Origin: Mollicutes bacterium
Lineage (GTDB): Bacteria; Bacillota_I; Bacilli_A; Izemoplasmatales; Izemoplasmataceae
Assembly (NCBI GenBank): GCA_003551405.1
Contig: PUMO01000174.1
Span: forward strand, 1-28,576
Length of the DNA: 28,576 nt
Direction of reading: 5' to 3'
A program made the position numbers and the translations under genes. The notes beneath the pieces are model-generated. The model did no database searches, was not told the DNA's origin, and saw only the letters and a program-made list of their open reading frames with translations. Shown one piece after another: positions 14,461-18,945 of this stretch (within the stretch, counting starts at the first letter, position 1; each line of letters starts with the position of its first letter).

Positions 14461-15213
14461 ATGGAACGTAAAGTTGTATTTTGGAAACGTTTTGCGTATA
14501 AAGAATCAGGCTATAAAGTCCTTGAAATTTGTGATGACGGGACGGCCTTATTGCGCACATTTGAAAATCAAAAGGATGAAGACTGGCTCTATAAAGAAGT
14601 AGACCAGGATGAAACCCCGCTTCAAGGGAAAATTCTTATCGAACATGTCGATTTTGGTGAAGACGGCAAGATTAAAGAAGATGCATTGCCAAACAAAGTT
14701 AAGACGATGGAAACCTATGAACTCAAAGACTTCGCATCAGCGCGTGACCGTGTGCAAACCCGTCAAAATTTAAGTCTTTCTACGCTTAAGGAAGACTATC
14801 ATTCTATTCTTGTGCTTGAGCCTTCAAGCATTCCAGAACACATTAAGAATTTATTGCCGGATACTAGATTCCCCATTATTAAATTCCGTTATGAGAACGA
14901 TAAAGGCGTGTTGCTTCGCAAAGAAAAACCGAGACGGCTTGAAACGCGGTTCATCCCAGAATTAAACGAAACCATTTATTTTTACTTGGATACGGGTCAA
15001 GAAAATTTAACAACCACAGGTGACAATATCTTTTCTATCGATACAAAGCACTGTGAACCGGGATTCTGTGAAACGGACTTTGATGCGTACATTCAAAACA
15101 TGGTGAAAGATATGAAAGCGAATTTAAAGCAATATCATGATTTATTTGTCAGACAACGTAACCGTATGGCGATGCTTGATACCGATGTCATCGGGGATTT
15201 GTATCCTCGCTAA
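14461..15213 (+). CDS. Hypothetical soluble protein, 250 aa
   Basis: Long ORF with GGAGGGG RBS and a downstream terminator; no family recognised. Confidence 0.8.
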   Translation: MERKVVFWKRFAYKESGYKVLEICDDGTALLRTFENQKDEDWLYKEVDQDETPLQGKILIEHVDFGEDGKIKEDALPNKVKTMETYELKDFASARDRVQTRQNLSLSTLKEDYHSILVLEPSSIPEHIKNLLPDTRFPIIKFRYENDKGVLLRKEKPRRLETRFIPELNETIYFYLDTGQENLTTTGDNIFSIDTKHCEPGFCETDFDAYIQNMVKDMKANLKQYHDLFVRQRNRMAMLDTDVIGDLYPR

Positions 15214-15221
15214 ACATAATT

Positions 15222-15251
15222 AAAGCACAGACTCAAAGTCTGTGCTTTTTT
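15222..15251. terminator. Bidirectional terminator
   Basis: AAAGCACAGAC-TCAAA-GTCTGTGCTTT between convergent genes. Confidence 0.88.
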
Positions 15252-15870
15252 AATCGATGAACGCCTCGTAATCCAGTGGATGTTTATCCGTGTAGGATTT
15301 AATCAAAGCGTGCGCTTCTTTATGATTGAGTGGAATGTCGACATATTGATTGTAACGATTTCTGATATGAATGCATTTTAAATAATCAATGCGTTTGCGA
15401 TAAGTTTGTTCATAGGCACGTTTGTAGAGGTTGAGCTGCAATGTTAAGCGTTCATGGTTTAAATGGCGACTGCGCTTAATATTGGTGATACCAAGGCCCT
15501 TAATATAAGGTGAGCGTACCACCATGTCAAACCGGCCTGCCGCAATGACCACACCGCTATCATATAAGAGTACAATCGGCTGTGTGTGAACGGCGTCAAG
15601 CTGGTGTTGGCGCTTGAGGGCGATATAACTTTGCATTTCCTTGTGATAGGTCTTTAGCCCTTCCGTTTCGTAGTTCATAATCATCCGTTTAAGATCATTG
15701 CCGCTTTTGGCGGCCTTTTTTAATATCTCAGCATCGACCTTTGGTGCACGGGAAGGGGACATGTCATCGATCATTTGTGTAATGCTTGGGACGTGACGTC
15801 CGTCCACTATGTATTGATGGTTTTCACTGTCAAATAAAACGTCGTGCGCATTGATTCGATATGTTTGCAT
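15250..15870 (-). CDS. PD-(D/E)XK nuclease-fold protein (phage exonuclease/YqaJ-like) with degenerate active-site motifs
   Basis: FDSENHQY...VPSITQMI, AGRFD, NIK in place of D/E-x-K, LQLNLY. Confidence 0.7.
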   Translation of the reverse strand: MQTYRINAHDVLFDSENHQYIVDGRHVPSITQMIDDMSPSRAPKVDAEILKKAAKSGNDLKRMIMNYETEGLKTYHKEMQSYIALKRQHQLDAVHTQPIVLLYDSGVVIAAGRFDMVVRSPYIKGLGITNIKRSRHLNHERLTLQLNLYKRAYEQTYRKRIDYLKCIHIRNRYNQYVDIPLNHKEAHALIKSYTDKHPLDYEAFID

Positions 15871-16005
15871 GCTTTTTTCCTCCAGTATTTTTCATTATAG
15901 CAAAGGTGAAAACAATATAAAAATTTATAGTAAATTATTTAAGCATTTTAGACGAAATGAACTACATTATATGATAGTATTAACGCAATTAAGGAGGTTA
16001 TTATT

Positions 16006-16395
16006 ATGCGTAAAAAACTATTGTTAAGTTTAAGTGTATTTTTAGTGTTGTTCTCTTTGGCCGCTTGTGGCAACGGGGATGATGAAGTGGAAGACACCCC
16101 CGATGATGAACTCCGTGAGTTTACACTTGAAGAGCTCTCCGAATATGATGGTGAAGATGGGGCCGATGCCTATGTTGCTGTTGATGGGTATGTTTATGAT
16201 ATGACAGATTCAGCCCAATGGACGGAAGGATCGCATCAAGGCCAAGTTCAAGCGGGACAAGATTTAACAGAAGAAATTGACAACAATGATCGTCATGGTC
16301 GTGAAATGCTTGATCGTGTGCCACGTATTGGCATCTTGGTAGAATCATCGGATGAAGAAAATTCTGATAACGATGATGACAATGGTGGTTATTAA
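16006..16395 (+). CDS. Cytochrome b5-like heme/steroid-binding domain lipoprotein
   Basis: Lipobox LAAC (Cys21). FTLEELSEYDG...AYVAVDGYVYD..., W..GSH...AGQDLT...HG with two His as candidate heme ligands. Confidence 0.88.
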   Translation: MRKKLLLSLSVFLVLFSLAACGNGDDEVEDTPDDELREFTLEELSEYDGEDGADAYVAVDGYVYDMTDSAQWTEGSHQGQVQAGQDLTEEIDNNDRHGREMLDRVPRIGILVESSDEENSDNDDDNGGY

Positions 16396-16402
16396 TCTTT
16401 TG

Positions 16403-16436
16403 AACGGTGATGCAAACGATATTGCTCACCGTTTTC
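16403..16436 (+). terminator. Intercistronic hairpin (weak terminator or mRNA stabiliser)
   Basis: AACGGTGA...TCACCGTT stem with only a short T tail, between the cyt b5 gene and the ferric-reductase-like gene. Confidence 0.5.
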
Positions 16437-16459
16437 AGTCTTTACGATAGGAGGACATT

Positions 16460-17782
16460 ATGAAATTTATCAAAGAATCGTATAAAGGCATTGTTTTTCT
16501 TTTGGTATTGATGGTTGTCAATGCTCTGCTTTGGTTAACTGCAGAACCGATCATTGATCAGTCACTTCAGAGCACCATCGCGCAAGTATTGGGCGCAACC
16601 CTATTACTTGGGTTTACAATGGTGTTTTTCCTCTCCACAAAAAATCGTGTGGTGAACTGGCTCTTTGGTGGGCTTGAAAATGTCTATTTTGCGCACCGGT
16701 GGTTAGCGATGTTCTCTTTTCTATTTATATTTGTACATGGTCAAACCACGAATTTGATTATTCAGTATTACCGAGATGTTCCCTTGAGCGCTGCGTCAAT
16801 GGGACCATGGGCAAGGAATTTATTTATTGGGCTCATTGTGATGGCGTTACTTGCTAAATATATGAAATATGAGCATTGGCGACTGATTCACCGTTTCATG
16901 GTCGTGCCGTATGTGCTTGCTTTTTATCATGCGGTGTTTATCAGTTCATATGATTTGGTGTCACTGAGTCCGCTTGGCATTTGGACAATGTCCTTGGGTG
17001 TCGTTGGGGTCAGTTCAAGTGTTTATATGATTGCGATTTATCGCAAAACTGCTTTCAAACATAAAGGCAGCGTCGTCTCTAAAAATATTCTGGCCGGTGA
17101 TGTGACTGAGATAGAGATCGATTTAGGTGAAACGCTTGATTTTAAGACCGGTCAATTCGTTTTTATTAAAATTAACAAATCGCCATTTGATGGTGTGCCC
17201 CATCCCTTTTCAGTTTCTGGTGGTAAAGATACCCGTATCTTTTTTACCATTAAGGCACTGGGGGACTATACAGAAGATTTAAAAACACACCTTGAAGAGG
17301 GTGACACCGTAGAAGTAACTCGTGCGTATGGTCACATGACGTTTGATGATTATCCTTCGCCTCAGGTGTGGATTGCCGGCGGCATCGGTATAACGCCGTT
17401 TTTGTCCCATGTTCGAAACATGGATCCACCTAAACAAAAAATTACGCTTTATTACTCAGTAAAAGAAAAAAGTGAGGCGGTTCATCTCGATTTATTTCGT
17501 CGAATGGATCAACAATATGAAAATTTCAATTTTGTTTTTTCTGAGAGCGACAAGGATGGGTTTTTCAGTGTGAACGATTTTGATTTGAGTGATGCCCCCC
17601 ATGTGATGATGTGTGGTCCGCTTCCCATGGCTAAAGCGCTTAAAAAACAATTCGCACGAATTGATGATCACCAGGCCTTGACCTATGAAGCGTTCAGTTT
17701 TACTGGCACCCTGGTAGAAGACACGGTTGCTTATTTTAAACGGTTAATCAAAAAATTCAGAATGAGATTTTCACAACAATAG
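16460..17782 (+). CDS. Ferric reductase-like transmembrane flavocytochrome (bacterial NOX-like) with FAD/NAD(P)H-binding domain
   Basis: TM His pairs H-x13-H (AHRW...FVHG) and H-x12-H (IHRF...FYHA); GQFVF, HPFS, KALGDYT, IAGGIGITPF, MCGP, terminal EAFSF. Confidence 0.9.
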   Translation: MKFIKESYKGIVFLLVLMVVNALLWLTAEPIIDQSLQSTIAQVLGATLLLGFTMVFFLSTKNRVVNWLFGGLENVYFAHRWLAMFSFLFIFVHGQTTNLIIQYYRDVPLSAASMGPWARNLFIGLIVMALLAKYMKYEHWRLIHRFMVVPYVLAFYHAVFISSYDLVSLSPLGIWTMSLGVVGVSSSVYMIAIYRKTAFKHKGSVVSKNILAGDVTEIEIDLGETLDFKTGQFVFIKINKSPFDGVPHPFSVSGGKDTRIFFTIKALGDYTEDLKTHLEEGDTVEVTRAYGHMTFDDYPSPQVWIAGGIGITPFLSHVRNMDPPKQKITLYYSVKEKSEAVHLDLFRRMDQQYENFNFVFSESDKDGFFSVNDFDLSDAPHVMMCGPLPMAKALKKQFARIDDHQALTYEAFSFTGTLVEDTVAYFKRLIKKFRMRFSQQ

Positions 17783-17874: not shown

Positions 17875-18945
17875 ATGAGTAATACTAAAGACCGTGCCAA
17901 AGGCGCGCTGATGGGAACATTTATTGGTGAAGCGCTTGGTGTAGGTCCGCATTGGTACTATGATTTGGATGCACTCCGCGAAGCTTTTGGTGAGTGGATA
18001 GATGATTATAAAACGCCTAAGAAAGGGCGTTACCATGAAGGGCTCAAGGCAGGAGAGTTGAGTCAGCAGGGTTGGATTGTTAAAAAAATGGCGGAGTATG
18101 TGGTAGAAAATCAAGGCTATGACCGTGAGAGTTTTTTAAAAACTATGGATGATTCTATTCTTCCTTACGTTCATGATAATCCGCTTAAAGGCATTGGTGG
18201 CTATACATCACAGATGATGCGTCATCTTTATCAGGCTCGTAAAAGAAATAACGAACCCTGGGGAGAGATTGCGAGTATTGCGGATACGACCGAATCACTT
18301 GAACGAAATATCCCCCTGGCGATTTATTACGCAAATGATCCAAAAGCACTCGCCAATCATATTGCGGAAAATACTGCTTATACCCAGCGTGATAACATGG
18401 TGGGGTCACTGACAGTGGCTTTTAACGTTGTGCTTGCCGCGCTTATAAAAGGTGAAGCACTGGACAGCAAACTAAGCAATACGCTGATGAAAAAAGTTTA
18501 TCGTAAGGAACTGCCCTTTTTTGCGGTGACGAGTGAAGGGCTTAATAAACCCATGGTCGGCCGTGATGTGAGCAGTTCTGAAGGGCTTTTTGCCTCACCA
18601 GATGGCCTTTTGTCGCCGTCGCACATGGCACGGGCAGCCAGTGACCCATCGATTGTGATTGAACCTGCCTGGAAAGCATCGATTGTCTATGGCATGCCAT
18701 GTGCCATTTATCATATGTTGCCGGCCAGTTATTATTTGGCCGCCCGTTTTAAGGATGATTTTGAAAGCGGCGTGCTTCATGCCATCAATGGGGGTGGGCA
18801 AAATCAAGTCCGAGCCATGTTAGTGGGCGCATTAATTGGTGCTCAGGTAGGTTTTGAAAAAATTCCCAAGCGTTTTATCACCGGTTTAAAAGACCATGAA
18901 TCGTTAAGTGAACTGGCTGATCGACTGGTTGCCCACTTAATTTAA
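17875..18945 (+). CDS. ADP-ribosylglycohydrolase / crystallin J1 fold protein with atypical active site
   Basis: RAKGALMGTFIGEALGVGPHWYYD, C-terminal AINGGGQNQVRAMLVGALIGAQVGFEKIP. Confidence 0.8.
   Translation: MSNTKDRAKGALMGTFIGEALGVGPHWYYDLDALREAFGEWIDDYKTPKKGRYHEGLKAGELSQQGWIVKKMAEYVVENQGYDRESFLKTMDDSILPYVHDNPLKGIGGYTSQMMRHLYQARKRNNEPWGEIASIADTTESLERNIPLAIYYANDPKALANHIAENTAYTQRDNMVGSLTVAFNVVLAALIKGEALDSKLSNTLMKKVYRKELPFFAVTSEGLNKPMVGRDVSSSEGLFASPDGLLSPSHMARAASDPSIVIEPAWKASIVYGMPCAIYHMLPASYYLAARFKDDFESGVLHAINGGGQNQVRAMLVGALIGAQVGFEKIPKRFITGLKDHESLSELADRLVAHLI

Follow-up and report, generated by a model that had tools for sequence, protein, structure and literature searches.

A conserved gene pair of a cytochrome b5M-type lipoprotein and a SpNOX-type flavocytochrome as a candidate electron-export route in Izemoplasmatales

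What does an exported cytochrome b5 do when its gene lies beside that of a transmembrane flavocytochrome? The question is raised by a stretch of 28,576 nucleotides (the window) from a Mollicutes bacterium of the family Izemoplasmataceae (assembly GCA_003551405.1, contig PUMO01000174.1), in which gene A (positions 16006–16395, 129 residues) is followed, after a spacer of 64 nucleotides, by the co-directional gene B (16460–17782, 440 residues). Both genes, and all of their features described below, lie on the plus strand. An earlier note, made from the letters of the window, had singled out these two adjacent genes, and the list of open reading frames (ORFs) gives both exactly as reported there. 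The adjacency of the two genes is far above chance. On the basis of sequence, predicted fold and gene order, we consider it fairly probable that electrons pass from NAD(P)H to FAD, through two membrane haems, and on to the b5 haem outside the cell.

The cytochrome b5 lipoprotein

Gene A was assigned from its ORF, a Pfam match, a profile match to a solved structure and an AlphaFold 2 model. Its translation begins with a signal peptide (16006–16068) ending in the lipobox L18-A19-A20-C21, with the codon of Cys21 at 16066–16068. The N terminus has the layout of a classical lipoprotein signal, comprising an n-region with KK, a hydrophobic core and the LAAC motif. At least 90% of 19 homologues share Cys21, and a lipobox-like motif is present in 75 of the 85 b5 ORFs of the survey. 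Lgt is encoded in the genome to which the window belongs, and no member of the signal peptidase II family was detected in the same assembly, which is 84% complete (1.30 Mb in 222 contigs).

The haem-binding domain is composed of residues 40–111 (16123–16338) and matches Pfam Cyt-b5 above the cut-off, with an E-value of 1.5e-9. The predicted axial ligands are H77 (16234–16236), which is invariant, and H97 (16294–16296), which at least 90% of 19 homologues share; W72, G75 and an AG.DLT motif are conserved together with them. The profile of the gene A family matches the structures of two archaeal proteins, from Hadesarchaea (Protein Data Bank (PDB) entry 6NZX, E-value 1.3e-25) and Methanococcoides burtonii (PDB entry 6VZ6, E-value 7.7e-23), far better than it matches any classical b5. 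In both structures, according to the depositors' preprint, the haem is buried and has H42 and H61 as its two axial ligands (10.1101/2021.11.30.470528), and an alignment of hidden Markov models (HMMs) places these residues on H77 and H97 of gene A. The AlphaFold model, with a core pLDDT above 90, shares the fold of 6NZX (TM-score of 0.93 and root mean square deviation of 1.3 Å at 49% identity), and Foldseek gives TM-scores of 0.93 and 0.92 to 6NZX and 6VZ6, respectively. Judged by sequence, gene A belongs to the prokaryotic cytb5M class, and haem binding is predicted. The ligand set has the bis-His pattern of b5M, not the Tyr ligation of b5MY. The lipobox, the b5 fold and the two candidate His ligands had all been proposed in the earlier note and are borne out.

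Gene A differs from 6NZX and 6VZ6, which are leaderless proteins of approximately 78 residues, in that it is predicted to be exported and lipid-anchored, has an acidic tail as well as an acidic linker, and is encoded in a pair with a membrane flavocytochrome. The acidic C-terminal tail (residues 113–129; 16342–16392; translation and alignment) ends in GGY, and of the 108 residues of the mature protein, 35 are acidic and 5 basic.

The transmembrane flavocytochrome

Gene B, identified by its ORF, Pfam and alignment to the SpNOX structures, aligns end to end with the crystal-structure sequences of SpNOX, the NADPH oxidase of Streptococcus pneumoniae (PDB entries 8qt6 and 8qq7, E-value 1.5e-73), and the Pfam families Ferric_reduct, FAD_binding_8 and NAD_binding_1 all match it above their cut-offs. 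The six-helix ferric-reductase domain (16460–17059; Pfam and alignment) holds the haem ligands H79 (16694–16696), H93 (16736–16738), H144 (16889–16891) and H157 (16928–16930). These form the pairs H79-x13-H93 and H144-x12-H157, on helix 3 and helix 5 of the SpNOX-type scheme, and align with those of SpNOX. The FAD-binding domain (17078–17317; FAD_binding_8 at residues 207–286) contains the HPFS motif (17201–17212), and the NAD(P)H-binding domain (17372–17695; Pfam and alignment) contains GGIGITP (17378–17398), CGP and F412 (17693–17695). Across 15 orthologues of gene B, H248-P249-F250, GG.G.TP at 307–313, CGP at 385–387 and F412 are invariant, and F412 aligns with the flavin-stacking F397 of SpNOX. 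The His spacing of x13 and x12 and the FAD and NAD(P)H motifs, on which the earlier note had based its NOX assignment, are likewise borne out.

Full-length architecture, the four haem-ligand His, HPFS, GGIGITP and the flavin-stacking Phe are thus shared with SpNOX (PDB entries 8qq7 and 8qt6; Hajjar 2017, PMC5676040; PMC11031084). Gene B differs in its longer first and second outward-facing loops and in a basic C-terminal extension of 26 residues after the EAFSF motif (17702–17779; alignment), which is kept in the orthologues of Izemoplasmatales and of the sister family and is lacking in SpNOX. The extension is probably amphipathic and may be a regulatory or membrane-binding element. Gene B also differs from SpNOX in its host, an anaerobic fermenter, and in adjoining a b5 lipoprotein gene, whereas the Lactobacillales genomes of our sample with SpNOX-like genes lack such a b5. 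Its assignment is to the bacterial NOX enzymes of the SpNOX type, with fused ferric-reductase and FNR domains, and NAD(P)H-dependent superoxide production is predicted by homology only.

SpNOX is active without any partner (PMC11031084). Gene B could likewise reduce O2 alone, as SpNOX does in vitro, and the b5 could receive no electrons from it and only be co-regulated with it, for example in response to haem availability or to oxidative or metal stress. We regard this as quite improbable. Superoxide released at its own naked membrane would seem costly for a fermenter with [FeFe] hydrogenases, and the gene order described below bears on the same point.

Conservation of the gene pair

The genomes compared in our surveys are related, and the counts that follow overstate independence. 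In the host family, a b5 gene adjoins NOX in 8 of the 12 NOX loci, that of the window's own genome included, and does so in four arrangements, with b5 upstream of NOX, as a double b5 downstream of it, or in convergent or divergent orientation. Two other loci of the 12 are cut by contig ends. A sample of 401 genomes of the phylum has a SpNOX-like gene in only five, too few for statistics, and in four of these five b5 genes lie beside NOX or within 3 kb of it. Two genomes of another, sister mollicute-type family have clusters in which a double-b5 gene, genes for a response regulator and a histidine kinase, and a NOX gene occur together, the NOX being 42% identical to that of the window.

The pairing is also present in Lactobacillales. 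Among the 80 b5 loci closest to gene A, five Trichococcus loci have NOX directly upstream; these NOX proteins are 22–27% identical to gene B and keep both His pairs. In a sample of 301 Lactobacillales genomes, 28 carry a NOX-like gene, and 10 carry a b5 with a match that extends over the leader region. Every one of these 10 also has NOX, against a background of 9% (hypergeometric P = 9e-12, uncorrected for kinship). NOX is followed directly by b5 at six loci in five of the genomes, Trichococcus pasteurii having two paralogous pairs.

The earlier note had counted a failure of the pair to be conserved among the results that would refute it, and the pair is indeed kept, in the host family and in these two distant lineages. 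That the two genes are neighbours by chance, with unrelated functions, is a reading for which their position in the window alone would speak. With the adjacency kept in several lineages and the complete co-occurrence of leader-bearing b5 with NOX in Lactobacillales, the synteny survey effectively refutes it, and we consider it extremely improbable. A pairing that recurs in unrelated bacteria makes the b5 a candidate natural electron acceptor of NOX.

In the sister-family clusters (L098:135-4521 and L099:63-4186), the double-b5 and NOX genes flank the two-component system, in a layout that resembles published operons of the Candidate Phyla Radiation (CPR) and that recalls hprRS-msrPQ of Escherichia coli. 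The best-scoring families for this two-component system, heavy-metal (CopRS-type) and HprR, all match it below the cut-off and give it no assignment.

Other membrane cytochromes beside b5 genes

The neighbours of the 80 closest b5 loci in species genomes were found by ORF calling and clustering. By our count, approximately 59 of the 80 adjoin a gene for a transmembrane cytochrome-like protein, which is of the SpNOX type at 13 loci, a four-His protein of approximately 130 residues at approximately 39, and a membrane-only ferric-reductase domain at approximately 5.

The four-His protein, the commonest neighbour, is found in clostridia, Tissierellia and Lacrimispora, with 0–130 nucleotides between its gene and b5. 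It is modelled by AlphaFold as a confident four-helix bundle (pLDDT of 92), and its sole invariant residues are four His, forming two H-x13-H pairs, and one Gly. Its members match the Pfam families cytochrome b561, Ferric_reduct and DUF4405 below threshold; the three belong to one Pfam clan. Model and invariant residues are consistent with a putative di-haem cytochrome. A DUF4405 protein binds haem b, and the DUF4405 family has been proposed to feed extracytoplasmic partners, in a study that does not mention b5 (10.1101/2024.03.13.584918).

Membrane-only ferric-reductase domains accompany b5 genes in the host family itself, where two genomes (G011 and G024) have a b5 lipoprotein gene, 7 nucleotides, and then a ferric-reductase domain of approximately 225 residues. 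In Acholeplasmataceae, a cluster (L027:2848-5830; also L035, L038 and L052) comprises genes for a chromate transporter (ChrA), a lipoprotein of approximately 400 residues with a fasciclin-b5-b5 architecture, and a membrane-only ferric-reductase domain of 211 residues. Relatives of gene A carry tandem arrays of two to five b5 domains.

These neighbourhoods bear on whether NOX might act alone. In favour of that possibility, many NOX-bearing genomes have no b5, the best, sub-cut-off matches of the sister-family two-component system are to the heavy-metal (CopRS-type) and HprR families, and genes for superoxide dismutase (SOD) and Dps adjoin the second ferric-reductase-domain gene of the window's genome. 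However, the adjacency of b5 and NOX persists through four rearrangements, and b5 genes adjoin three unrelated kinds of membrane cytochrome, some of them without a dehydrogenase domain, which makes co-regulation alone hard to accept.

Several further b5 loci were observed. An uncultured Tenericutes metagenome-assembled genome encodes a protein of 532 residues with five tandem Cyt-b5 domains (L032:577-2175). At L015:4004-5086, an amino-acid-type solute-binding domain (SBP_bac_3) and a b5 domain are joined in one protein, whose gene precedes one for an ABC ATPase. Four loci (L033, L037, L049 and L051) have a gene for a fused MacB-type ABC transporter, then two b5 genes, then a lactate/malate dehydrogenase gene. 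The neighbours of orphan b5 genes showed nothing coherent. The window's genome has a second b5 lipoprotein paralogue (L093; G000:C144, 2–487, minus strand), whose tail of (DDDDSY) repeats runs off the contig end. On a different contig (L094; G000:C103, 1–2024), a gene for a membrane-only ferric-reductase domain starts at the contig edge, with genes for Fe/Mn SOD, RidA and Dps after it. It may be that the (DDDDSY) repeat split a single locus between these two contigs. At L097:3356-7944 (G015:C31), a b5 lipoprotein gene has as its neighbour a series of membrane-protein genes on the minus strand; the dehydrogenase domain of the first of these weakly matches the NOX query, and the series is like an Nqr/Rnf-type operon by gene order and sizes alone.

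Haem supply

A route built on b haems needs haem, and the earlier note had pointed to a genome check for haem synthesis as a matter of interest. A search for ALAD across 25 genomes of the family and order, 16 of them at least 90% complete, gave no match, whereas it matched 11 of 14 control genomes. Ferrochelatase and porphobilinogen deaminase, two further genes of the pathway, were not found in the window's own genome at its 84% completeness. With no haem-synthesis genes found in the lineage, the haem of the host is probably scavenged, and the dependence that the earlier note had envisaged, on haem that the cell does not make, fits the genome. The haem proteins found in this genome are ferric-reductase-domain and b5 proteins only; besides these, cytochrome bd and catalase alone were sought, and neither was found.

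In a haem auxotroph, the b5 lipoprotein could serve in haem capture, buffering or chaperoning instead of carrying electrons. It could collect external haem at the cell surface and supply it to the neighbouring membrane protein or shield the cell from free haem, and NOX might reduce b5-bound ferric haem for release. The absence of the three synthesis genes from the searches above favours such a role. So does the neighbourhood, as every conserved neighbour of b5 is a haem protein and a loading factor would therefore show the same synteny. The eukaryotic relatives MAPR/PGRMC are discussed as haem chaperones (10.1101/2021.11.17.468889), and the paralogues fused to a solute-binding domain or lying beside MacB-type ABC transporters point the same way. 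Three observations argue against it. The haem of the solved cytb5M proteins is buried, six-coordinate and bis-His ligated, as in a carrier and not as in a hemophore, and gene A keeps both ligands; chains of up to five b5 domains and an NAD(P)H-driven partner fit a redox role better; and the window shows no dedicated haem importer in linkage with the two genes. We judge a haem-handling role rather unlikely.

Proposed electron route

In the electron-transfer reading, which we prefer, gene B would take hydride from cytoplasmic NAD(P)H onto FAD, and single electrons would cross the sole membrane of the wall-less cell by way of the inner and then the outer haem of gene B. From the outer haem they would reach the bis-His haem of the b5M lipoprotein, a very acidic protein tethered on the outer leaflet, and the b5 would in turn deliver them to a soluble or surface acceptor. 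Candidate acceptors are ferric or cupric chelates, humic or sulfur compounds, and O2 or other oxidants at the cell surface. The analysis shows the domain architectures, the ligand residues, the fold, the kept gene pair and the lack of haem-synthesis genes, whereas haem occupancy, docking, the terminal acceptor and how fast and which way electrons move are inferred. The route could serve as a sink for NADH in connection with the neighbouring hydrogenases and lactate dehydrogenase, as the earlier note had suggested. Two hints concern the acceptor or trigger, neither of them decisive: the SOD, RidA and Dps genes beside the second ferric-reductase gene, and the CopRS/HprR-type match, below the cut-off, in the sister-family clusters.

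Bis-His b5 proteins are usually acidic one-electron carriers. Outward transfer fits this usual role, and it fits the tandem runs of two to five b5 domains that relatives carry. It also fits SpNOX, in which the outer haem is exposed and which reduces cytochrome c directly, its physiological function and acceptor being given as unknown in the structure paper (PMC11031084). Cytochromes of the DUF4405 and MsrQ types are known to deliver electrons to redox partners outside the cytoplasm (10.1101/2024.03.13.584918).

A broader version of this proposal, which we put forward tentatively and to which we give somewhat less than even weight, is that exported cytb5M lipoproteins are general physiological acceptors of NOX-type, membrane-only ferric-reductase-type and small four-His cytochromes. 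They would constitute an electron-export route that uses b haems only and is widespread in haem-scavenging anaerobic Bacillota and their wall-less relatives.

A number of results weigh against the route or its extension. Approximately 19 Lactobacillales genomes with NOX, including SpNOX-like ORFs of approximately 400–414 residues, have no b5, and approximately 18 Lactobacillales genomes with a leaderless b5M of approximately 83 residues have no NOX-like gene; since each occurs without the other, neither strictly needs its partner. A search among longer b5 proteins for fusions of b5 with NOX or another cytochrome gave only double-b5 proteins, and the Cyt-b5 domain is absent from the 120 best NOX homologues listed. 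Profile comparison of the four-His partner with the NOX family gives a probability of only 17%, and Foldseek with its model ranks NOX5, CybB, cytochrome b561 and SpNOX first, none with an E-value below 0.2. The b5 paralogues fused to or lying beside transport proteins hint at other roles. The leaderless proteins of Lactobacillales (for example, G585:C1:805648-805878) are like the archaeal proteins of the crystal structures.

The proposal makes the acceptor question of SpNOX-type enzymes testable, a conserved surface-tethered b5 being a concrete candidate for a subset of NOX enzymes, and the cultured strain Trichococcus pasteurii DSM 2381, with its two NOX–b5 pairs, is an organism in which to test it. 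Already, a single b5 family joins three types of membrane cytochrome partner. If the broader version is true, export by b haems only would parallel the c-type multihaem wires of metal reducers, and enzymes of the SpNOX family would gain a natural partner. Haem-dependent electron export in fermenters without a haem pathway would bear on the disposal of reducing power and the handling of oxidants in sediments.

Comparison with known systems

A parallel was reported in a 2021 preprint on CPR bacteria, in which pFre, cytb5MY and cytb5-like genes form operons with two-component systems, and this co-localization was stated to be unseen outside CPR (10.1101/2021.11.17.468889). Those operons and the window share a ferric-reductase-domain gene beside genes for membrane-tethered b5 domains. 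The two-component system of the CPR operons is matched in the sister-family clusters L098 and L099; in the window, the ORF list and Pfam reveal none around the pair. The b5 of the window is of the bis-His b5M class instead of the Tyr-ligated b5MY, and has a lipoprotein anchor. The co-localization described here, in Izemoplasmatales, a sister mollicute-type family and Trichococcus, contradicts confinement to CPR, and that claim needs revising. It is found here in Bacillota-type lineages, with a partner of the bis-His b5M class that has a lipoprotein anchor.

The MsrQ–MsrP and DUF4405/PepSY/MsrQ systems (10.1101/2024.03.13.584918) share the logic of a transmembrane di-haem protein that feeds a redox protein at the outer face. 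They differ from the pair in that the outer partner here is a b-haem lipoprotein instead of a molybdoenzyme or a flavinylated protein, and in that gene B has the FAD/NAD(P)H donor module fused to its membrane domain. In the eukaryotic cytochrome b5/b5 reductase system and in Ncb5or, an FNR-type NAD(P)H flavoprotein reduces the b5 haem, as is likewise proposed here. The eukaryotic b5 and b5 reductase lie on the same side of the membrane, whereas here two membrane haems would stand between the donor module and b5, and the electron would therefore cross the membrane.

Surroundings of the gene pair

The b5 gene is preceded by promoter-like hexamer pairs and the ribosome-binding site AAGGAGG (15991–15997), within 15947–16007 on the plus strand (consensus scan and sequence reading), in a spacer that separates it from the divergent minus-strand gene at 15250–15870. 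Gene A and gene B each have a GGAGG ribosome-binding site of their own. Downstream, the pair is flanked by an ADP-ribosylglycohydrolase gene (17875–18945). The two ORFs just upstream, at 14461–15213 (plus strand, 250 residues) and 15250–15870 (minus strand, 206 residues), have no Pfam match, and a bidirectional terminator-like hairpin lies between them (15222–15248).

Between gene A and gene B, a strong, stable hairpin is followed by a broken T-run (16402–16434, plus strand; RNA folding energy of −21.1 kcal/mol, z-score of −3.7). It may be a leaky terminator or an mRNA stabilizer between the two genes. The hairpin is not conserved in most relatives, and those with short spacers have none; at locus L021, another, different strong hairpin occupies the same position.

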